Source of the DNA: Nitrospirota bacterium
GTDB lineage: Bacteria > Nitrospirota > Nitrospiria > SBBL01 > JAADHI01
NCBI GenBank assembly: GCA_029261215.1
Contig: JAJDBT010000032.1
Location: 4,002-68,001 of the forward strand
Direction of reading: 5' to 3'
DNA: 64,000 nt
Positions 4,484 to 13,966 of this stretch are shown in pieces; the stretch's first letter is position 1; every line of letters starts with the position of its first letter. Below the pieces are notes generated by a model. That model made no database searches. It was not told where the DNA came from and saw only the letters and a list, made by a program, of their open reading frames with translations. A program made the position numbers and the translations under genes.

Positions 4484-4522
4484 TAAAAAAACACGTTAGA
4501 TGAAAGACCTTCGGGGTTCATC
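4484..4522 (-). terminator. Possible intrinsic terminator after nirB
   Basis: The minus strand reads GAUGAA-CCCCGAAGGUCU-UUCAUC at the nirB stop, then UAACGUG and U7. The 7-nt gap between stem and U-tract weakens the call. Confidence 0.35.
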
Positions 4523-7020
4523 TACCCGTTATTTTCCGCTTCCTGAAGGACTTCAATCAGACCCGGACCATCAAATTGAAAAGGGTACAGCGGGTCTTCG
4601 GCTTCTTTCCACGGATCTTTATAGGCATCCACCGCTTCCTGCATTTTTTCTTCGAGATTGGCACAGATGCCCAAAGAGTCCTCAATCAAAATACCTTTTA
4701 AAAGGTCGATGCCAATCCTTTCGACAAAACCATAGGTCCGCTCCAGATATTTGGCGTGCTGCCGGTAATATTCCAGGAACCGGCTTGTGTACTGGATGAC
4801 CGCTTCAGGGCGATCCACCGTGCAAAGCAGGTCTCCTTTACGAATCGTGCTGCCCGCTGCCCCACCGATATAAATCTCCCAACATCCGCCTTCAATGGCC
4901 ACAATACCAACATCTTTCACATAGGCTTCTGCGCAGTTGCGAGGGCAGCCCGTCACAGCCATTTTGACTTTATGTGGAGATTCCACACCTTGAAAACGGC
5001 GTTCGATTTCCTGTGCCAGAGAAATCGAGTCCCCCAGTCCAAAGCGGCAAAAATCGGTACCGACACAGCTTTTTACGGTACGAAAAGCCTTGGTGTAGGC
5101 GTGGCCGCTGGGCAATCCGATGTCCTTCCAAATGGCAGGGAGATCTTCTTTTTTGATGCCCAGAAGATCAATGCGTTGCCCTCCGGTAAACTTCACCATT
5201 TTGGCTTTATATTTGACAGCGGCCTGGGCAATTCTCAGCAACTCGTCGGGGCTCGTCACACCGCCCATAATTCTGGGAACGACAGAAAAGGTCCCATCTT
5301 TTTGAATATTGGCATGGACACGGTCATTAATAAACCGCGCATCACGCTCGTCTTCGTAATCTTTGGGCCAAAGAGTCTTGAGCAAGGAGGCCAGGCCCGT
5401 TTTTGTGGTCGGATCTTCCTCGCCCTCTCCCAAGACTTGAAGGGTCGCGCTCACTGATTTTAAGCCCCTCGAACGCACTTCTCGAACCAGCTGGGATTTT
5501 TCAAGGGGAATGCCCGGCACATAATAATGCTCGCTGGCGTCGTAAGAGACTTTTCCGATCCTGGATTCAATCAACTGGGCGATAAAACCACGGCACGACC
5601 CACAGCCCTGTCCGGCCCTGGTTTTTGTGCCAATGGCTGCAACACTCGTGCAGTTGTCATTATCAATTGCAGATAAAATGTCGCCTTTGCATACCCCGTT
5701 ACAATTGCAAATCTGGGCGGAATTCGGCAAATCCGCCGCATTGAACAATCGCGCGCCTTCGATCGACCCAAAAAGGATTTCTCCACGATTTTCAGGCAAG
5801 GGTTTTTCATTTTGAAAAAGCTGCATCAGGCTGTCGCTGAGCTCGGTGTCGCCCAACAAAATGGCACCATGAATTTTATTGTCTCGGACAATGAGTTTTT
5901 TATAAACGCCTCGGCTCGGATCGCGGTACACCAAAATTTCGTCATCTGTTTCATCGGTCTCTTTTTCGCCCATCGAGGTCAAGTCCACGCCCATCACTTT
6001 CAGCTTTGTACCCGTCTTCGACCCGATATATTCCGCATCTTCATTCACACCCGTTAGAATATCCGCCAAAACCGCCACCTGCTGCCAAATGGGATCAACA
6101 AGACCATAGGTTTTGCCTCGATGTTCAATACATTCTCCCACCGCATAAATATGGGGGTCATTCGTTCTCATTTGATCATCGACAAGAATACCGCGATTCA
6201 CCTTAAGATGACTCTTATCCGCCACCTCAACAATCGGGACAATGCCTGCGCTGATCACCACCAGATCGGTTTCCAAAAGGCTGCCATCATTAAAAACAAG
6301 CCGACCCACCTTGCCATTTTTTTCAACCAGCTGCGTGCTAAAGGTTCGAGTCAAAACACGCAGACCCATCGCGCCCATCGCGCCCTCTAAAATCTTGGCC
6401 GCTTCCCTGTCCAGCTGGGAAGGCATGAGTTGATCAGCTGCTTCAATGACAGACACCTCCAGATCGTGCGTCATCAGACCGCGCGCCGCTTCCAGCCCCA
6501 GTAGCCCGCCACCGATGACTGCCGCTTTTTTGCAGTTTTTCGCATAGTCCGCAATCAGGTCACAATCATCAATGGTTCTAAATAGAAAAACCCCCGGCAA
6601 ATCACTGCCCTTGATCCTCGGCACAAAAGGGCGTGCACCTGTTGCAACAATCAATTCATCGTAGTCGGCCTCAATCAGATCCGCACCCTTTTCTCCCGCG
6701 ACTTCCGATCCGTAAGGCGGAGTGCCTTTTGAAAGTTTCAGCCCGAATACCTTTTTTTGCGCCCGATCAATATGGGTCACTTTCACCCCGACGTGCAGTG
6801 TAATGTCGTTGTCCGTGTACCATTGCAGCGGGTTGATAAAAATATCATCAGGCGCTTGTGTCTGATTGAGGACGTTGCTCAATAAAATACGGTTATAGTT
6901 TCCGTAGGGCTCTGCGCCAAACATCACAATTTCGAAGGCATCGCGGTCCCGTTTCAATATTTCGTCCACCGCTCTGGCGCCAGCCATCCCATTTCCGATC
7001 ACAACCAGTTTTTTCTTCAC
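4522..7020 (-). CDS. nirB: NAD(P)H-dependent nitrite reductase large subunit
   Basis: FAD site VVIGNGMAG, NAD site AAVIGGGLLGLEAA, a BFD-like 2Fe-2S region (ICNCNGVCKGD...GQGCGSCRG), and a sirohaem/4Fe-4S domain (CVGTDFC...VTGCPRNCAEA). The start is set at GTG 7020, which has a GAGGAG SD 6 nt upstream; the ORF track extends to TTG 7050. Confidence 0.9.
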   Translation of the reverse strand: MKKKLVVIGNGMAGARAVDEILKRDRDAFEIVMFGAEPYGNYNRILLSNVLNQTQAPDDIFINPLQWYTDNDITLHVGVKVTHIDRAQKKVFGLKLSKGTPPYGSEVAGEKGADLIEADYDELIVATGARPFVPRIKGSDLPGVFLFRTIDDCDLIADYAKNCKKAAVIGGGLLGLEAARGLMTHDLEVSVIEAADQLMPSQLDREAAKILEGAMGAMGLRVLTRTFSTQLVEKNGKVGRLVFNDGSLLETDLVVISAGIVPIVEVADKSHLKVNRGILVDDQMRTNDPHIYAVGECIEHRGKTYGLVDPIWQQVAVLADILTGVNEDAEYIGSKTGTKLKVMGVDLTSMGEKETDETDDEILVYRDPSRGVYKKLIVRDNKIHGAILLGDTELSDSLMQLFQNEKPLPENRGEILFGSIEGARLFNAADLPNSAQICNCNGVCKGDILSAIDNDNCTSVAAIGTKTRAGQGCGSCRGFIAQLIESRIGKVSYDASEHYYVPGIPLEKSQLVREVRSRGLKSVSATLQVLGEGEEDPTTKTGLASLLKTLWPKDYEDERDARFINDRVHANIQKDGTFSVVPRIMGGVTSPDELLRIAQAAVKYKAKMVKFTGGQRIDLLGIKKEDLPAIWKDIGLPSGHAYTKAFRTVKSCVGTDFCRFGLGDSISLAQEIERRFQGVESPHKVKMAVTGCPRNCAEAYVKDVGIVAIEGGCWEIYIGGAAGSTIRKGDLLCTVDRPEAVIQYTSRFLEYYRQHAKYLERTYGFVERIGIDLLKGILIEDSLGICANLEEKMQEAVDAYKDPWKEAEDPLYPFQFDGPGLIEVLQEAENNG

Positions 7021-7062
7021 ACACTTCTCCTCTGTTTTTTCAAGACACAAGCAAACAAATGT

Positions 7063-7404
7063 TTACAGCTTCACTAACTCCACCAAAGCCGGGTGATATT
7101 CAATAAAAAGCGTGCCTTCCTCGACCCAGGCCGGAAAAGTCCGAACCGTTTCATTCGGGGCACTTCCCATTCCGGTTTTCAAATCAAACTTGTGACCATG
7201 CAGGGGGCAAACCACTTCGCCATTTCCGATAATCCCTTCAGAAAGCGGCCCGTTTGAATGCGGGCAGCGATTTTCAATGGCCGTCACCAAACCATCCCTG
7301 GATCTAAAAACTGCAATGCCTTCTTCTTCCACTTGATAACACAATCCCTGCCCCAAGGGCACCTTTTCAATGGGGCCGAGATTAATACGCCATGATTTTT
7401 CCAT
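7063..7404 (-). CDS. nirD: Nitrite reductase small subunit (Rieske-like)
   Basis: 113-aa protein with a Rieske-type fold carrying CPH...CPLHG. It lies directly upstream of nirB and has an AAGGAG SD. Confidence 0.85.
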   Translation of the reverse strand: MEKSWRINLGPIEKVPLGQGLCYQVEEEGIAVFRSRDGLVTAIENRCPHSNGPLSEGIIGNGEVVCPLHGHKFDLKTGMGSAPNETVRTFPAWVEEGTLFIEYHPALVELVKL

Positions 7405-7436: not shown

Positions 7437-7471
7437 AAAAAAAGGCGCCTAGATCAATTGATCCAGGCGCC
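7437..7471 (-). terminator. Intrinsic-terminator-like hairpin 35 nt upstream of the nirD start (putative attenuator)
   Basis: The minus strand reads GGCGCCUGGAUCAA/UUGAUCUAGGCGCC, a roughly 12-bp stem with one G-U pair, followed by U7. The stem is better on the minus strand; on the plus strand the same position is an A-C mismatch. Confidence 0.7.
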
Positions 7472-7527
7472 TTTGCCTAAAAACCGAACAACAACTCACC
7501 TTAAAGTAGTAGCAATCATCATGCCTA

Positions 7528-7583
7528 AAACACTTAGAAAAGGAAAAACCATAAAATATCTTTTTTTTCAAACACTTAGAAAA
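7528..7583. repeat. Two copies of a 14-nt direct repeat AAACACTTAGAAAA in the nas-nir spacer
   Basis: Exact copies at 7528-7541 and 7570-7583, with starts 42 nt apart (about four helical turns). They sit in an AT-rich non-coding region upstream of the nirD leader hairpin. Confidence 0.6.
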
Positions 7584-7725: not shown

Positions 7726-9579
7726 TTAATGATCATGCATCACAACGCCCACTTCAGGTCTCTCAGCCAGGCCTGAAGTTCGAGCCAGGTTTTCAAAACG
7801 CTGATTGCCCCAAAAAAATCCTCTTGGAACGGTCGTGGGAACCACCGAGACATAAAACAAGGCACGCCCGATCATCTCATGAGCGACTGCAATAAAAAAG
7901 ACCAGAGCCCAGCTCAACATCCCCCCAGCGGTTGAGGGTGGAAACAGACTAAACAGAATCGCACCAGCCATCAAAAAGCGCCAGCTCATCAAACGTAAAC
8001 GATAGATCTTCCCGTGCTGCTCTGTCATCAGCATCCGGGAAATTGCCGCCTCTTCTCCCCGCCGCGTTAACTCCCGCAGGTGGGCATGCAATGCCACACC
8101 TTGAAGAAGTAATCCGCCCGCAAAAAAAAGCGCCAGCACCCGAAGCAGCGGCGCGACAGTCACACTCGCCCACAGTCCTGTAAAACCAAAAATCAAGGCA
8201 AGCGCACTGCTTCCCAGAATGAACCCACTCGAAGCAAAAGCCGCGCCGGAATGCCAATGATCCCAGAAGGGCCGCGCCGGAATCCGATAACACCGATACA
8301 TGGCATAAATCCCTAATGGGCCAAAAACAGAAGCCGCGCTGCCAATAACGGTCGGCAACAGATTCGTAATCACATCCGGTAACCACGCTGCCAAAACAGG
8401 AAAAACCGTCACAAGGCTGTAGGCGGCGATGAGTCCATAAAATCCTCCCATTGCCGCAATTTCACGGCTCACCCAGGAATGACGCAGGTTGTTCATCGCC
8501 CGATAAAAATATTGCGGCTTGCCCAGATGCAGCGTGGACAACACGAGCCCGAAGGTTTGCAAGGCCACAATTGTAAAAAGCGTCAGCCCCATTGCAATGG
8601 GATGATTTTTAGAAGAGAACAATTCTGCGGCCGTACTGCTGACCTTTGGCAAGAGAAAAAGAGCCAGAAAAGCACCCACGGCAAACTGGGAAATCAGGGT
8701 AAACAACACCAGCGGGTCTTCCCGTGAACGAAGCTTGTCCCACCCCCAATTCACAGGAGATTTCGACTTTTTCCCCTTAATTTTATAATGAGGTGCTGCA
8801 TCCCCATCTGTAGCTGCATTCTTTGTTTGCAAGGTGTCCTGTTCATAACGGACGGGGGCGTCATCGAGTCGTTGAAAAGATTCCGGTAAGGTTTGATTGA
8901 GTTGAAAGCGGATATTTGGACGTGAAATCTTAGGATCCGTAAAAGAGGGGATCGTGAGTTTGACATCCTGTTGTTTTTTCGGAATTTCATCGATCACGCC
9001 AAAATCAAGCGCGTTCGCCAGACAGGCATCCACACAAGCAGGCTGCAAGCCCACTTCAAGGCGGTCAACACACATATTGCATTTTTGAACCTGACCTTTT
9101 TCCGTATCCAGCTGCGGCGCATTATAGGGGCACACCCAGGTACAGTACCCGCAGCCAAAACAAATTTCAGGGTCCTGCAAAACCGCGCCGTATTCCAGAT
9201 ATTTTGTGTACGCACGTGTCGGACACCCTTTCAAACAAACCGGGTCTTCGCAATGGTTGCAGGCCATCGAAATATTAATGCGCGTGACATCGGGATAAGT
9301 GCCGCCCTCGATGCTGCCCACACGCCGATACGCCATATGCGGCGCCAGGTCATTTTTTTCAGAGCACGCCGATTCACAGGCATGGCAGGCAATGCAGTTA
9401 TCCGCATTAAAATGAAAACCATGCTGTTTGTATCGATTGGGATTCGCCTCACTGTTTGGCGTGCAGCCGTAGTCGTTAATCACCAGAGGCGCACCCACAA
9501 GTTCCGGATAGTCTTTATCGAGCGCGATTGTCGTACCGTGTTGACTTTTTAGGCGTAAACCCGTTTCCGTATTACTCAT
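7726..9579 (-). CDS. Fusion protein: four-cluster 4Fe-4S ferredoxin domain (DmsB/NrfC-like) plus an 8-TM DmsC/NrfD-like membrane anchor
   Basis: Four Cys clusters are present: CIACHACESAC, CNHCEDPVCLKGCP, CFGCGYCTWVCP and CNMCVDRL...CVDAC. About 8 hydrophobic helices follow, including the LHLGKP motif. There is no twin-arginine signal. The start is set at ATG 9579 (AGGGGA SD, 10 nt after the upstream stop); the track start at 9606 would overlap the upstream gene by 17 nt. Confidence 0.8.
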   Translation of the reverse strand: MSNTETGLRLKSQHGTTIALDKDYPELVGAPLVINDYGCTPNSEANPNRYKQHGFHFNADNCIACHACESACSEKNDLAPHMAYRRVGSIEGGTYPDVTRINISMACNHCEDPVCLKGCPTRAYTKYLEYGAVLQDPEICFGCGYCTWVCPYNAPQLDTEKGQVQKCNMCVDRLEVGLQPACVDACLANALDFGVIDEIPKKQQDVKLTIPSFTDPKISRPNIRFQLNQTLPESFQRLDDAPVRYEQDTLQTKNAATDGDAAPHYKIKGKKSKSPVNWGWDKLRSREDPLVLFTLISQFAVGAFLALFLLPKVSSTAAELFSSKNHPIAMGLTLFTIVALQTFGLVLSTLHLGKPQYFYRAMNNLRHSWVSREIAAMGGFYGLIAAYSLVTVFPVLAAWLPDVITNLLPTVIGSAASVFGPLGIYAMYRCYRIPARPFWDHWHSGAAFASSGFILGSSALALIFGFTGLWASVTVAPLLRVLALFFAGGLLLQGVALHAHLRELTRRGEEAAISRMLMTEQHGKIYRLRLMSWRFLMAGAILFSLFPPSTAGGMLSWALVFFIAVAHEMIGRALFYVSVVPTTVPRGFFWGNQRFENLARTSGLAERPEVGVVMHDH

Positions 9580-9589
9580 GCCTTGTCCC

Positions 9590-11770
9590 CTAATAGGTTC
9601 GTTCATTCAAAATCGATTTGGCCGCAGCAGCCTGATCACTCACATACTCAAGCCGTACGGCGGATTGTTTGTAGGCGGGCTGCCTTGAATAAGGATCAAG
9701 CAGGCCCAGCGCCAAGCGGTTGACACAGTTGTAATAATGCATGGGAATAAAGATGGCGTTCTCTGCCACCCGCTCCGTCAACTGCGCCAATACAAGCGCA
9801 GAGGAACGGCGCGACACCACCCGGACATAATCCATGGACTGAATCCCCAGTTTCTCGGCAGTTCTTGCGTTAATCTCCATAAAAGGCGTTGGGCTAAATT
9901 TGTTGATATTTCCAATTTTTCCGGTCTTGGTCCGTGTGTGCCAATGCTCCACCAGCCGACCCGTATTCAGCCAAAACGGATAGTCCTCATCAGGCACTTC
10001 ATTGTTGTCGATAAAAGGGAGAGGGATGAGCTTGGCCTTGCCGTCCGAAAATTTGAATTGGCCGTCCGTATAAAGACGTGGACTGCCTTGGGGGTTTTTA
10101 TCGTTACAGGGCCATTGAATACCCCGCGCCGCCTCGATTTTATCGTGGCTCATGCCCGAATAGTCACAAAGCCGCCCCCTGGACGCCTCACGAATTTCAT
10201 CAAACACGGCCTCGGAAGCTTCTGCAAAAGGCATGTCTTTGGCACGTTCAAAGTATTTGGCCAACTGGGTGAAAATCCAAAGATCCGGTTTTGCCTGACC
10301 TGGCGGTTCAACCACTTTTCGCACCAGATTCACACGTCGTTCCGTATTGGTAAACACCCCGGTCTTTTCTCCCCACAAGGCCGCAGGTAAAAAAATATGG
10401 GCCGACTCGGCCGTTTCGACATCCGCGTAGGCATCCTGCACCACCAGAAATTCAAGCTGTTCCAATATTTTTCTGATTTTTGGACTATTGGGCATGGAGG
10501 TCATCGGATTGGTGGCAATGAGCCAAAGGCCCTTGATTTCACCACGCTCGATGGCGGGGAAAATATCTGTTTCGGTCAAGCCGCGTTTTTCGGGAAAGTG
10601 TCGGGCATCAACCCCCCAAAAATCAGCCGCAAAGGCGCGGTCTTCCGCATTTTCCAACTGCCGGTAGCCTGGGAGTCCGGAACAGGAAGAAAACTCGCGT
10701 GTGCCCATTGCGTTACACTGTCCCGTAATCGAAAGCGATGTGCCGCCGGGTTTCCCGATATTGCCCGTCATCAGGTTTAAATTGTTAATCGCCACCACAC
10801 CGTCAGAGCCATGTGTGGATTGATTGATGCCCATCGTCCAGATCGTCATCGCGGCACCTGCACCGGCATATATACGGGCGGCTTTTCGGATCATTTTTGC
10901 AGGGATGCCGCAGATGGGTTCGGCCATTTCCGGGCTGTACTGATCCACCAATGCCTCAAAATCCTGAAATCCATTGGTATGTGCCTGGATATAATCTTTA
11001 TCCTCCAGGCCTTCTTTTAAGATCACGTGAGCCATTGCGTTTAAGAGCACAAGATCCGTACCGGGGGTGATGGGCAGATGCATATCCGCCATTTGAGCAA
11101 ACATGGTCACACGGGGGTCCACCACAATAATGGGAAAGCGGCGGCGGTCGTAAGCTTCTTTTAAGCGGTAATAGATAATGGGGTGCTGCTCCGGCAGATT
11201 GGAGCCGATCGCAAGCAGACAGCCCGTGTGTTCAAAATCGTCATAACACCCTGGCGGTCCGTCACTGCCAAAAGACCGTTTGTAGCCGGAAACAGCGGAA
11301 GCCATGCACAAAGTGGTGTTGCCATCGTAATTGTTGGTGCCAATGACGCCTCGAACCAGCTTTCCCAGGGTGTAAAATTCTTCAGTGTAGATTTGACCTG
11401 TGGACACGATGGCAAAACTGTCTCGGCCATACAAGGCTTGAATTCTTGAAATTTCCGAAGCTGTTTTTCTTAAGGACTCGTCCCAGCTTGTTTCTAAAAA
11501 GGGGTCTGCACGGTCTTTTCGAATCAGCGGTGCGACACCTCGGTTTTTGGACTCAAACACTTCATATTCATAAATCCCTTTTAAACACAGTTTCCCTCGA
11601 TTCACATCGGCATTTTCTACACCGCGGGCCGTCACGGCCTTCCCCGCTTTGTCCACCCCGACTTCAAGAGAACACCCGGTAGAACAATAACCGCAGGTGG
11701 TATACACCCACTTTTCAACCGGCTTTACGGGTAATTGAATCGGATTTTTATGCAAACGTCCAAATAACAT
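9590..11770 (-). CDS. Molybdopterin (bis-MGD) oxidoreductase, Nas/Nap-clade nitrate reductase catalytic subunit, no Tat signal
   Basis: N-terminal C-x2-C-x3-C-x28-C FeS motif (TTCGYCSTGC...LCLKG). The Mo-ligand segment NTTLCMASAVSGY is typical of NapA/NasA/NarB and differs from the Sec/Cys-His of formate dehydrogenases. The protein is 726 aa, about the size of NarB/NasA, and sits next to nirDB. Confidence 0.75.
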   Translation of the reverse strand: MLFGRLHKNPIQLPVKPVEKWVYTTCGYCSTGCSLEVGVDKAGKAVTARGVENADVNRGKLCLKGIYEYEVFESKNRGVAPLIRKDRADPFLETSWDESLRKTASEISRIQALYGRDSFAIVSTGQIYTEEFYTLGKLVRGVIGTNNYDGNTTLCMASAVSGYKRSFGSDGPPGCYDDFEHTGCLLAIGSNLPEQHPIIYYRLKEAYDRRRFPIIVVDPRVTMFAQMADMHLPITPGTDLVLLNAMAHVILKEGLEDKDYIQAHTNGFQDFEALVDQYSPEMAEPICGIPAKMIRKAARIYAGAGAAMTIWTMGINQSTHGSDGVVAINNLNLMTGNIGKPGGTSLSITGQCNAMGTREFSSCSGLPGYRQLENAEDRAFAADFWGVDARHFPEKRGLTETDIFPAIERGEIKGLWLIATNPMTSMPNSPKIRKILEQLEFLVVQDAYADVETAESAHIFLPAALWGEKTGVFTNTERRVNLVRKVVEPPGQAKPDLWIFTQLAKYFERAKDMPFAEASEAVFDEIREASRGRLCDYSGMSHDKIEAARGIQWPCNDKNPQGSPRLYTDGQFKFSDGKAKLIPLPFIDNNEVPDEDYPFWLNTGRLVEHWHTRTKTGKIGNINKFSPTPFMEINARTAEKLGIQSMDYVRVVSRRSSALVLAQLTERVAENAIFIPMHYYNCVNRLALGLLDPYSRQPAYKQSAVRLEYVSDQAAAAKSILNERTY

Positions 11771-11783
11771 GTGTCCTCACTAC

Positions 11784-11821
11784 AAAAAAAGGCGCATAGA
11801 CCAACATTCGATCTAGGCGCC
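11784..11821 (-). terminator. Intrinsic-terminator-like hairpin 13 nt upstream of the nitrate reductase start (putative attenuator)
   Basis: The minus strand reads GGCGCCUAGAUC-GAAUGUU-GGUCUAUGCGCC followed by U7, then GUAGUGAGGACAC-AUG. Both stem arms are near-identical to those of the hairpin at 7437-7471. Confidence 0.6.
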
Positions 11822-11831
11822 TTAGCCAAAA

Positions 11832-11851
11832 GAAACACGTCCTTGTGTTTC
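11832..11851 (-). promoter_or_regulatory. Leader hairpin with hexaloop AAGGAC (ANTAR-target-like)
   Basis: The minus strand reads GAAACAC-AAGGAC-GUGUUUC, a 7-bp stem whose hexaloop has A at position 1 and G at position 4. It lies 10 nt upstream of the terminator 5' arm. Confidence 0.35.
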
Positions 11852-12052
11852 GAACACTTTTATAAAAGCAATATCAGTGCCTTTTTCTAAAAAAAGGCTT
11901 AAACCGCGTTATAACAGACCTAAAAGCATGATGTTCAATAAAACCTGTTTTTTTTAACAGTAGATACGGAACAAAAAACCAACAACTTTGTCGGAAGTCC
12001 GACGAAAAAGAACGATTCAGCCCTGTCCAAGATAGAAGAGAAAACCAGGTCA

Positions 12053-13966
12053 CTATGGATTCAGCGTCAACTGAATGTCATAGGCGCCCAAGAGTCCCGC
12101 CGAAGGCGGGGCATTTTCAGAGCGCATGACTTCAACGGTAAAGGTTCCAGTTTCGGCCGCCGTAAAGGTAATAGACGCCGCGAGCGTGTCTTTGTCATTT
12201 TTTGGGCAGTTGCTGAACCCGGTAAAAGGATTCACGCCGCAAGAAAAGTAGTCGGCGTTACCGGGGTTGTCATTTGTACTGATTGACACACCCGATGGAT
12301 TTTTGATCGTCAAAAAGGGATCTGCCCCATTTGAAAGGTTGAATGTGTTCACAGTGTAGGAGCTTCCCGATGCCGCATTAAACGAGATCACGTCAATGTC
12401 ACCCACAGGGTCAGTCGCATTTAGATAGAGCGTATGATGTTGGGTTGAGCCCACAATGAGTGTAGCTTCAGGGACGTTCAGACCCGCTTCCGATGCATCG
12501 GCAAAAAGTTCGACTTCCCTTCCTTGCAAAAGGGTTTGAAAATCACTGTTAAAAGAAGAAGTCTCACTTCGGATCGAAAACTGCGTCCAGAAGGTCTCAA
12601 GCGTTGTGGGTTTGTCCGCAGGAAAACTTAAAAAGGTGTGAAAGATTTCTGTAAAGCTCAGATCGACCGGATCATTCTCACCGCCACTGCTCTGAACACC
12701 ATCAAAAAGATCCCATAAAATCCCGGAGACTGAAATTTCACTCGTAGTGAAAATCGCAAGTGACGGAAGCTGTCCCACTGACGGAGCAGTATAGTCTTCC
12801 ATATTAATAGAAAGCGCACCGTTAGAGAAGGTGTCCAGGTACACCGGTGAATTCCGCATGGCGAGAGAGAAGAAGTTTGCCCAGCCTTCCGACCAGCTGA
12901 GCCGAATATCCTGATCATTGTCTGTAAAAGTATGGAATCCACCCGGAGAGTCATCCCTCAAAAACTTGCTGACAATAAAATGACCGTATTCGTGAATAAT
13001 CACTGAATCATCATATTCGTCCGAGTCACTCTGGCTGCCCAGCAGTGAGATCGCATCTGCAACATCATCATAAAAAGTTCCTTCCGTGCTGCCCGGCTCC
13101 CAATACACCGTCACCAGGGGCGGCACACAGTCGGGGAAGGGCGATGCGAGGCAGGAGTTAACCGCCTGCACAAAAACACTCGCATCCATCAGAACATCCA
13201 TAATATTAAAGGCCCCGCCGATTCTGTTTGCTGCAGTGGCCAGCAAATTCTGTGTGGCTGAAAAAGTCCCGCCACCGACGCTATCGTCTACGCCCGGAGA
13301 GATGAACCAAAGGACTTCTTTAGTCGTTTTGTTATCTTTGATTTCAATTTTTGTCTTCTGTGTCACATCCGTTTTGCTGAACACCTTAAGAAATACCCCG
13401 CCGCTGTTCTGGCTGTTATCGACCGTCAGGCTGAAATCGCCATCGCCATTCGTCGTTGAAGTCCCGAGCGAAACAAAGCCATCGATCGCAATGACCTCAA
13501 TCACGGCATTTCGAATCGGCTTTGACGTGAGTACCCCCGTAAACCCATTTTGGTTAAATTCACGGTCTTCATAGCTGGCCTTCCCGGAAAGTGAGAGCGA
13601 TGCAGCTCCCAGATTCGCACTCCTGGCCCAGAGAATCGCCGTGCCGCTCACGCCAGCGGAGCTTGCAGTAATGACGGCAACACCCACCTGGTTTGCAGTG
13701 ACAAGCCCATTGGGGTTTACTGAAATCGTAACACTGTCATCCGACTGCCAGGTAAAAACAGCATCTTGAACCACCTCTCCTGTCGAAAGCCGTAAGGTCG
13801 CCGTCAACTGCAAACCCTCTCCTCCAACCACTAGCGTCTTTGTGCTCGGGGTAATGGTAATCGTATTTATTTGAGGCCCAGGAATGCTGTTGCTGCTATT
13901 GTTTTTACAACCATAGCCGAACAAGAGTAGGCTCATAAAAATCAGGGGGAGTATTTTGATTTTCAA
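12053..13966 (-). CDS. Secreted/lipoprotein zinc metalloprotease with Big_2-like, CarboxypepD_reg-like and C-terminal PPC-like domains
   Basis: HExxH motif (IIHEYGHFIV). An Ig-like segment follows the signal peptide, then VIEVIAIDG...NGDGDFSL (carboxypeptidase-regulatory-like), and a beta-rich C-terminus. The start is set at TTG 13966, giving the signal MKIKILPLIFMSLLLFGYGC; the track start at 14035 is also TTG and overlaps the upstream gene. Confidence 0.7.
   Translation of the reverse strand: MKIKILPLIFMSLLLFGYGCKNNSSNSIPGPQINTITITPSTKTLVVGGEGLQLTATLRLSTGEVVQDAVFTWQSDDSVTISVNPNGLVTANQVGVAVITASSAGVSGTAILWARSANLGAASLSLSGKASYEDREFNQNGFTGVLTSKPIRNAVIEVIAIDGFVSLGTSTTNGDGDFSLTVDNSQNSGGVFLKVFSKTDVTQKTKIEIKDNKTTKEVLWFISPGVDDSVGGGTFSATQNLLATAANRIGGAFNIMDVLMDASVFVQAVNSCLASPFPDCVPPLVTVYWEPGSTEGTFYDDVADAISLLGSQSDSDEYDDSVIIHEYGHFIVSKFLRDDSPGGFHTFTDNDQDIRLSWSEGWANFFSLAMRNSPVYLDTFSNGALSINMEDYTAPSVGQLPSLAIFTTSEISVSGILWDLFDGVQSSGGENDPVDLSFTEIFHTFLSFPADKPTTLETFWTQFSIRSETSSFNSDFQTLLQGREVELFADASEAGLNVPEATLIVGSTQHHTLYLNATDPVGDIDVISFNAASGSSYTVNTFNLSNGADPFLTIKNPSGVSISTNDNPGNADYFSCGVNPFTGFSNCPKNDKDTLAASITFTAAETGTFTVEVMRSENAPPSAGLLGAYDIQLTLNP

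Follow-up and report, generated by a model that had tools for sequence, protein, structure and literature searches.

A conserved attenuator, probably of the ANTAR type, in the leader of a sigma-54-dependent nasA operon of a Nitrospirota bacterium

INTRODUCTION

Among described systems, the nasF operon of Klebsiella oxytoca M5al is controlled by NasR, an antiterminator with a NIT-ANTAR architecture (Chai & Stewart 1998/1999, as cited in PMC3369931; review PMC12591593), and this operon combines sigma-54/NtrC control with the ANTAR leader (PMC12591593). In the general model of ANTAR action, a protein dimer binds a first RNA hairpin, P1, and captures a second hairpin, P2, as it emerges (PMC3369931, PMC8934654); the loop consensus is A at position 1 and G at position 4, or A1/G4 (PMC8934654, PMC3369931). 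ANTAR proteins with GAF domains were uncharacterised as of 2012 (PMC3369931), and a 2025 review lists GAF-ANTAR only as an architecture (PMC12591593). Our literature search found no characterised GAF-ANTAR example and no paper linking ANTAR to Nitrospirota. Here we analyze a leader of this kind in a 64,000-nt stretch of DNA from a Nitrospirota bacterium (contig JAJDBT010000032.1; the whole stretch is called the window below), located upstream of a gene for a probable assimilatory nitrate reductase, which we call nasA.

We consider it very probable that the element is a conserved regulatory attenuator. Its folding, its conservation and the proteins encoded in the genome further argue that it is the ANTAR-type attenuator of a sigma-54-dependent nasA operon, operated by a GAF-GAF-ANTAR protein, and we hold this to be the probable reading.

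RESULTS

The nasA leader contains two hexaloop hairpins and an overlapping terminator

Positions count within the window, and the leader and the operon genes are on the minus strand. The leader is composed as follows, in the order of transcription.

11979 to 12010, minus strand: inverted-repeat block CTTTTTCGTCGGACTTCCGACAAAGTTGTTGG, likely the enhancer (upstream activating sequence) to which a sigma-54 activator would bind; its distance from the −24 element is about 100 nt
11867 to 11881, minus strand: sigma-54 (RpoN) type promoter GGCAC-TGATA-TTGCT, GG at −24 and GC at −12
11832 to 11851, minus strand: P1 hairpin, 7 bp; 5′ arm GAAACAC (11851-11845), loop AAGGAC (11844-11839), 3′ arm GUGUUUC (11838-11832)
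Between P1 and P2, minus strand: linker UUUU
11816 to 11827, minus strand: P2 hairpin, 3 bp; GGC (11827-11825), loop UAAGGC (11824-11819), GCC (11818-11816)
11784 to 11823, minus strand: intrinsic terminator; arms (AA)GGCGCCUAGAUC (11823-11810) and GGUCUAUGCGCC(UU) (11802-11789), loop of 7 nt (11809-11803)
11790-11784, minus strand: U7 tract directly after the terminator stem, its end 13 nt from the ATG
11768 to 11778, minus strand: Shine-Dalgarno sequence GAGGA (11778-11774) and ATG (11770-11768) of the molybdoenzyme gene

On re-reading the window, the minus-strand leader string given in a preliminary description of this DNA matched letter for letter, and the hairpin with U7 that it had placed 13 nt before the ATG is supported as the terminator of the leader. 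Each terminator arm comprises 14 positions, forming 13 pairs, one of them G-U, with one C/U mismatch. The base of the stem, GGCGCC/GGCGCC, is G+C-rich and the U7 tract lies immediately 3′ of it, which fits the definition of an intrinsic terminator. Positions 2-6 of the P2 loop and the P2 3′ arm (11823-11816) coincide with the opening 8 nt of the terminator 5′ arm. The preliminary description had suggested that a weak second hairpin, GGC-UAAGGC-GCC, would sequester this arm; the overlap was confirmed, and the GGC...GCC stem is conserved.

The leader, with a predicted length of about 85 nt, has the layout of an ANTAR target, with two tandem hexaloop hairpins of 7 bp and 3 bp, a 4-nt linker and an overlapping terminator. 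The second loop, UAAGGC, has G at position 4 but U at position 1, while the copy upstream of nirD described below reads AAAGGC. As read from its letters, the nasA RNA would carry the defining features of an ANTAR target except for this U at position 1 of the P2 loop. An Rfam scan of 11000-12600 at a permissive threshold yielded no curated family, only chance-level matches, the best with 22.7 bits against a gathering score of 56.

Termination is the predicted default

RNAfold returned P1 plus the terminator, the two main hairpins of the preliminary description, as the minimum-energy fold of a 141-nt segment, at −42.7 kcal/mol (z = −3.75; none of 200 shuffles was as stable). The 73-nt leader folds at −28.0 kcal/mol, the terminator alone at −18.5 kcal/mol and P2 alone at −3.9 kcal/mol. 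P1 with the terminator reaches −26.7 to −28.0 kcal/mol, versus −12.1 kcal/mol for P1 with P2, the antiterminator form. Since the antiterminator form is weaker by approximately 15 kcal/mol, termination is expected to be the default, and a protein would be needed to hold P2. The two structures are mutually exclusive: with P2 enforced, the leftover upper hairpin stops 8 nt short of the U tract, and in this modeled state it should not terminate.

P1 covaries and keeps the ANTAR loop signature

The leader is kept upstream of nasA orthologues in the genus, so that the hairpin is indeed conserved at orthologous loci, a point on which the preliminary description had made its proposal depend. The P1 loops of seven genus genomes read AAGGAC, AAGGAA, GAGGAG, AAUGUC, AAGGAU, AGCGUC and AGCGUC, with compensatory substitutions in the stem. 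Over 20 leaders from the order and the class, loop position 4 is G without exception; at position 1, 15 leaders have A and 5 have G, and positions 2, 3, 5 and 6 vary. The closing C-G and A-U pairs never change. Of the loop signature noticed beforehand in the 7-bp hairpin, G4 with A or G at position 1 is what these leaders have in common, in a stem that covaries. In a plain MAFFT alignment (A3), four of the seven P1 pairs were changed on both sides. P1 cells were paired in 94.9% of cases, compared with at most 57.6% in slid-partner controls, and the covariation score was reached by none of 500 shuffles.

The P2 stem GGC/GCC is invariant in the 18 of 20 A3 leaders that keep the motif, as is G4 of the P2 loop; the diverged copies in G005 and G006 have GGC/GCU, and these two genus members carry a degraded P2 and terminator. 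Position 1 of the P2 loop is always A in leaders without P1, and A, G or U where P1 is present. In the g2 leaders L013 and L014 the P2 loop (AAAGGC/AAUGGC) lies outside the terminator stem, yet it is conserved. This conservation outside the stem, and the constraint on A1 where P1 is absent, suggest a role for P2 beyond that of a terminator foot. A strong terminator, at −12.8 to −32.1 kcal/mol, is found in every related leader, and its stem sequence differs from one leader to the next.

A conserved promoter motif of the sigma-54 type precedes P1

Transcription is predicted to begin near 11856, some 5 nt upstream of P1. When the upstream regions of 21 orthologues in related genomes were aligned, the promoter motif GGCAC-N5-TTGCT proved conserved, also within the genus, and GG[CT]A[CT]-N5-TTGC occurs 29-70 nt upstream of P2 in 26 of the 29 leaders collected from relatives. 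The preliminary description had seen no room for a promoter between the terminator and the ATG, and this stands. The conserved sigma-54 promoter sits upstream of P1. With the promoter in this position, every nasA transcript must pass the hairpin, in support of the read-through that had been postulated for all transcripts of the gene. RpoN is encoded in the genome, together with about 15 sigma-54 activators, none of them on the contig of the window. Genome-wide we counted 69 sigma-54-like sites; this leader is found at only two.

Blocks related to CTTTTTCGTCGGACTTCCGACAAAGTTGTTGG (…AGACAAAAATGTCGT…) occur at the same place in L005-L009, L013-L015, L068, L081 and L089 despite differing upstream genes. 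Because the block recurs in relatives beside different upstream genes, and judging its function by position, it is likely an enhancer for a sigma-54 activator. The hairpin and T-run at 11994-11979 were also considered as a mere terminator of the upstream protease gene, which ends at 12053; this was rejected, as the sequence is conserved beside unrelated upstream genes, and the hairpin may serve as that terminator in addition. A gene for a PAS-sigma-54 activator (L095 6137-7543, G009) was noticed inside a leader-headed nitrate-assimilation cluster of a relative, and its product is a candidate binder of the conserved upstream repeat.

A single GAF-GAF-ANTAR protein is encoded in the genome

No ANTAR regulator is encoded in the window, as the preliminary description had remarked, and a search of the whole genome gave a single match (PF03861, 81-85 bits), on contig C76. 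In this sole ANTAR protein, of 421 aa, the ANTAR domain is C-terminal and is accompanied by two GAF domains. A single-copy GAF-GAF-ANTAR protein, 59-91% identical, is present in 35 of 41 relatives, and public records list a 'GAF and ANTAR domain-containing protein' from Nitrospiria, Ca. Manganitrophaceae and Nitrospira. In the alignment with EutV (PDB 6WSH/6WW6), the residues that contact the flipped G4 are identical at R142, K149 and E160, and Y164 is replaced by F; M172, N173 and R175 are also identical.

Within the order, the protein is present in 24 of the 26 leader-bearing genomes. In six genomes no ANTAR gene was detected. Four of these (G018, G019, G020 and G024, from three families, each 93% complete or more) possess nasA without the leader. 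The co-occurrence of leader and protein gave a Fisher p of 0.02-0.05, a value overstated by kinship. The ANTAR orthologue of G038, a genome from a different family of the class, is located 3 kb upstream of a canonical dual hexaloop with terminator (GGAAAC-[AACGAC]-GUUUCC ... GGAC-[AAUGAC]-GUCC), which is followed by a small open reading frame, a porin gene, two ammonium transporter genes (amt) and a PII gene.

The first GAF domain is closest to the N-terminal GAF of PtsP/EI-Ntr (PDB 3ci6, E = 1.6e-21; NCBIfam PRK11061, 138 bits), a GAF that binds glutamine (PMC4848567). The second is closest to the N-terminal GAF of NifA, with 98 bits. We also observed that in 17 of 29 related loci the gene next behind GAF-GAF-ANTAR encodes an oligoribonuclease (orn, RNase_T family), here at L001 1737-2291 on contig C76; the adjacency is found in families f1, f2 and f5, and not in f4.

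Related leaders precede other nitrogen genes

Further copies were collected in three ways: with R1, a covariance model of the module formed by P2 and the terminator; with R2, which models P1+P2; and with a generic scan for two hexaloop hairpins with an overlapping terminator. The copies in this genome are the following.

7437 to 7525, minus strand: nirD leader, the second copy; sigma-54 promoter GGCATGATGATTGCT (7525-7511), P2 GGC-[AAAGGC]-GCC (7477-7466) with A1 and G4
7473-7437, minus strand: 14-bp nirD terminator AAGGCGCCUGGAUC-AAUU-GAUCUAGGCGCCUU with U7
Contig C18:15003-14920, minus strand, outside the window: third copy (L108); R2 23.9 bits, E = 0.002
Contig C105:31533-31460, minus strand: leader (L110) with dual hexaloop and terminator before porin-ureD-urtABCD (urea uptake)
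Contig C77:1165-1090, minus strand: leader (L111) with dual hexaloop and terminator before a 146-aa gene without known function

The nirD copy lies 4.3 kb downstream of the nasA leader. It scores 65.4 bits with R1 and 21.6 bits with R2 and folds at −26.8 kcal/mol, and the same leader is found in G001, G002 and G004; no convincing P1 was found in it (7525-7437). A block GCAGACATTATTGTAGG, similar to the upstream blocks described above, precedes its promoter. Immediately upstream of this promoter there are also two identical 14-mers UUUUCUAAGUGUUU, 42 nt apart (window 7528-7583, minus strand), the downstream one ending 2 nt before the GG of the −24 element. The pair might be a binding site for IHF or for an activator.

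The C18 leader begins with P1 AAAUAC-[AGUGUU]-GUAUUU, followed by GCAAAGGCG and a strong terminator with U7, and lies 22 nt before a porin gene (Alginate_exp-like). No sigma-54 motif was seen upstream of it. After the porin, the operon encodes a 286-aa protein without known function, a 656-aa flavoprotein similar to the NirB N terminus and a 464-aa multihaem cytochrome c, and from these products it is possibly an octahaem-type nitrite reductase system.

The generic scan returned 12 loci in the genome, and loci were kept only if family-specific features were present. Apart from nasA, the loci so retained were the C105 and C77 leaders, in both of which the AC..GU closing pairs and the GGC/GCC stem of P2 are those of the family. 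They carry sigma-70-like promoters instead, which indicates that the promoter type is not part of the switch. By this count, the genome carries about five such switches before nitrogen-uptake genes. Two other probes were discarded: the exact motif GGCNANGGCGCC was too narrow, with 8 genome sites and a terminator only at nasA and nirD, and a first loose dual-hairpin scan gave 132 matches, mostly intragenic.

R1 finds both window copies (nasA and nirD) and leaders in 29 of 41 relatives; class-wide it matches almost only within the order of the window, being too sequence-bound to trace the element further. The genes behind the leaders in relatives belong to nitrogen assimilation, in PII, NirB, MFS and NasA operons. 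In G026 the leader is followed by a molybdopterin-binding domain-PII fusion and then PII, NirB and PII; in G013 by an MFS transporter, a NirB-NirD fusion and then NasA; and in G009 by a PII-like protein, PII, MFS, NirB, the PAS-sigma-54 activator and then NasA. The fusion protein, with 367 aa, joins a sulfite-oxidase-type molybdopterin-binding domain (PF00174) to PII (PF00543) and is the first leader gene in most families of the order (L078/L093 322-1425 in G026, L070, L071, L073-L077 and others); the present genome has no such fusion. To our knowledge, this PF00174-PF00543 fusion has no described function.

Genes of the window operon

The genes served by the two window leaders are these.

9590 to 11770, minus strand: molybdopterin oxidoreductase, 726 aa, cytoplasmic, NasA/NasC-like (Pfam Molybdop_Fe4S4, Molybdopterin, Molydop_binding)
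7726 to 9606, minus strand: second operon gene; its 626-aa product joins a DmsB-like 4Fe-4S subunit to a DmsC-like membrane anchor (Pfam Fer4_11 + DmsC)
7063-7404, minus strand: nirD, Rieske small subunit (Pfam; NCBIfam nirD 68.7 bits, just below the cut-off)
4522-7050, minus strand: nirB, NAD(P)H nitrite reductase large subunit (Pfam; NCBIfam nirB 833 bits, above the cut-off)

The Pfam domains of the 726-aa molybdoenzyme are those of the Nas/Nap/Fdh type, and all its NCBIfam matches are below their cut-offs (Fdh-alpha 618 bits, with a cut-off of 666; NasC 528; NasA 464). Its orthologues in relatives lie in operons with an MFS transporter and NirB/NirD, and from this context it is a probable assimilatory nitrate reductase. 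The 626-aa fusion matches NCBIfam DMSO_dmsB with 170 bits, below the cut-off. A fused DmsB-like FeS subunit and DmsC-like anchor beside a cytoplasmic, Tat-less molybdoenzyme would be an unusual electron route for an assimilatory nitrate reductase.

DISCUSSION

Proposed mechanism

From structure and comparison we infer the following course of events, including binding, read-through, the acting protein and its ligand. Once activated by an enhancer-binding protein on the upstream repeat, the sigma-54 RNA polymerase would start near 11856. The nascent RNA would by default fold into P1 and the terminator, and transcription would stop at U7, 13 nt before the start codon. An active GAF-GAF-ANTAR dimer would bind the P1 hexaloop and then the P2 hexaloop; with P2 (GGC/GCC, loop UAAGGC) held, 8 nt would be lost from the base of the terminator 5′ arm, and the polymerase would read through into nasA. 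The same switch would act before nirD, and related ones before the porin/multihaem-cytochrome and porin-ureD-urtABCD operons. Given the switches at nasA, nirD, C18 and C105, the protein probably gates a small regulon for alternative nitrogen sources.

Several observations weigh against this reading. The 3-bp stem of P2 never varies, so it is consistent with a helix but has no covariation support, and position 1 of the P2 loop is U, not A, in the nasA copy. Two RNA contacts of EutV, R168 (Q here) and R177 (T here), are not kept in the aligned protein, as in Rv1626. The reversed genome gave 6 generic-scan loci against the 12 real ones, and shuffles gave 0-3, so about half of the real loci could be chance. 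The ANTAR protein also occurs in families without an R1 leader, and the leader-bearing genomes G012 (93% complete) and G032 (79%) have no detected ANTAR gene; as the mismatches go both ways, the phyletic link is weak. No R2 match was found within 1.5 kb of any of the 30 ANTAR genes of the order, and the gene is unlinked to the leaders. Finally, the tentative assignment of ligands to the GAF domains follows from domain-level similarity below family cut-offs.

The inducing signal

For the signal, we rank cellular nitrogen status, read as glutamine and/or 2-oxoglutarate by the two GAF domains, above nitrate or nitrite, giving the former a little less than an even chance and regarding the latter as unlikely. 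Nitrogen status is favored because the regulon appears to include urea uptake and, in relatives, ammonium and PII genes, and because the GAF domains resemble those of PtsP and NifA.

A switch with the same RNA mechanism and nitrate or nitrite as inducer, sensed by the GAF domains directly or through a partner protein, is accordingly a rival that has to be weighed, and we find it rather improbable. Three copies in this genome do precede genes of nitrate or nitrite reduction (nasA, nirD and the C18 operon), and in relatives the leader heads MFS-NirB-NasA operons. Sigma-54 could supply the input of nitrogen limitation and thereby free the attenuator to report the substrate, as in nasF (PMC12591593), and the genome encodes a NIT-domain protein, a type of nitrate/nitrite sensor. 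Against this, the sole ANTAR protein is GAF-GAF, with neither a NIT-ANTAR nor a REC-ANTAR protein in the genome, and the sole NIT domain belongs to a GGDEF-EAL enzyme. The family-like leaders at urea uptake genes here, and at PII and ammonium-transporter genes in relatives, are not nitrate-specific; the GAF domains match the PtsP/NifA type, and no nitrate-binding GAF structure was among their PDB matches. The nitrate/nitrite-responsive, NasR-like part of the antitermination proposed in the preliminary description is accordingly not supported.

The NIT domain is found in a 1058-aa NIT-PAS-GGDEF-EAL protein (contig C106:97864-101040, minus strand; L062 4865-8041), a possible nitrate input into cyclic di-GMP (c-di-GMP) signaling. 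Antitermination by NasT of Pseudomonas putida is blocked when c-di-GMP binds this protein (PMC10783516). This precedent, with the orn gene behind the ANTAR gene in 17 of 29 relatives, led us to a speculative combination in which the NIT-PAS-GGDEF-EAL protein would set the c-di-GMP level and the GAF tandem of the ANTAR protein would read c-di-GMP/pGpG plus glutamine/2-oxoglutarate, nitrate thus reaching the switch. We think this very improbable. Were it so, substrate and nitrogen status would converge on one orphan antiterminator that serves a whole nitrogen-source regulon across the class Nitrospiria.

The acting protein

It is also conceivable, with a small probability in our judgment, that the attenuator is conserved and run by another factor, namely an RNA-binding protein (PII-like or other), a small RNA or kinetic control, the hexaloop likeness being coincidental or meant for another reader. 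The unlinked ANTAR gene with its imperfect phyletic match would fit such a case, as would the P2 loop of the nasA copy, whose position 1 is not A. The best-conserved feature is moreover the sequence block GGC-NANGGC-GCC rather than a covarying helix, and PII-like genes come first behind many leaders. What argues for the GAF-GAF-ANTAR protein instead is that the P1 loop is constrained at positions 1 and 4 only, which matches ANTAR recognition specifically, that the G4 pocket residues are kept in the protein, and that one ANTAR protein per genome is found across the class. The orthologue in G038 is near a canonical dual hexaloop, and the lineages lacking ANTAR have nasA without the leader.

That there is no switch, and the hairpin only terminates partially and constitutively, stabilizes the RNA or ends transcription of the upstream protease gene, is scarcely credible. 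Hairpin plus U7 is a standard terminator shape, and in a simple scan of the window terminator-like sites were about as frequent as the background. Against this, the element sits 13 nt from the start codon, downstream of the conserved sigma-54 promoter, and cannot serve the upstream gene; its arrangement recurs before nirD and, in 29 of 41 relatives, in front of nitrogen genes with different upstream neighbors; and an always-stopping terminator would silence the operon.

Significance

The regulation of nitrogen assimilation in Nitrospirota outside the nitrite oxidisers is essentially undescribed. The leader family gives the orphan GAF-GAF-ANTAR protein a set of candidate RNA targets, at nasA, nirD, the multihaem nitrite-reductase-like operon and urea uptake, and suggests a layered design in which a sigma-54 promoter is followed by an attenuator. 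Newly recognised here are the conserved sigma-54 promoter, the enhancer-like repeat and the single GAF-GAF-ANTAR protein with the residues that hold G4. The natural variants with one or two hairpins could serve to test the model that a single hexaloop is enough. For annotation, the terminator before nasA should not be taken as an operon boundary.

Comparison with known systems

Like NasR/nasF, the leader belongs to a nitrate-assimilation operon, and its sequence predicts the same succession of a sigma-54 promoter with an upstream enhancer, an A1/G4 hexaloop hairpin and an intrinsic terminator, with a small second hairpin at the 5′ base of the terminator that can form in its place. Unlike NasR/nasF, two GAF domains here replace NIT, the regulator gene is unlinked and position 1 of the P2 loop is U; the leader is duplicated before nirD, with related ones at urea and other nitrogen genes, and the signal is probably not nitrate. 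With NasS/NasT of Paracoccus, Azotobacter and Pseudomonas (PMC3795266, PMC10783516) the system would share ANTAR antitermination of nas/nirBD leaders with nitrogen control layered on top. NasT is of the REC-type ANTAR and works with the nitrate-binding NasS, whereas the sole ANTAR protein here has no receiver domain.

The eut leaders of Enterococcus faecalis, read by EutV/EutW (PMC3369931; structure PMC8934654), resemble those described here in the dual hexaloop motif (A1/G4, with U1/G4 in the P2 loop of the nasA copy), the overlap of P2 with the terminator and the presence of several leaders per genome. The protein here keeps the EutV residues that hold the flipped G4 (R142, K149, E160 and an aromatic residue at 164). 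EutV is a phosphorylated response regulator of ethanolamine genes, in contrast to the GAF tandem that would be the sensor here. Some leaders in our collection have one hexaloop hairpin only, which fits the 2022 proposal of a single hexaloop as the minimal site.

In Geobacter sulfurreducens, the GnfK/GnfR system reportedly controls nitrogen-fixation and assimilation genes through a REC-ANTAR protein, GnfR being a two-component response regulator. Our system would be alike in placing an ANTAR protein on several nitrogen-metabolism leaders of a sigma-54-reliant bacterium; it differs from GnfR, a response regulator with other target genes in another phylum.

Taken together, the leader falls outside both the NasR and the NasT systems, as judged from the predicted architecture of its regulator, which differs from either. 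The mechanism itself is known, and what this locus adds to the described ANTAR systems is scope and sensor, not principle.

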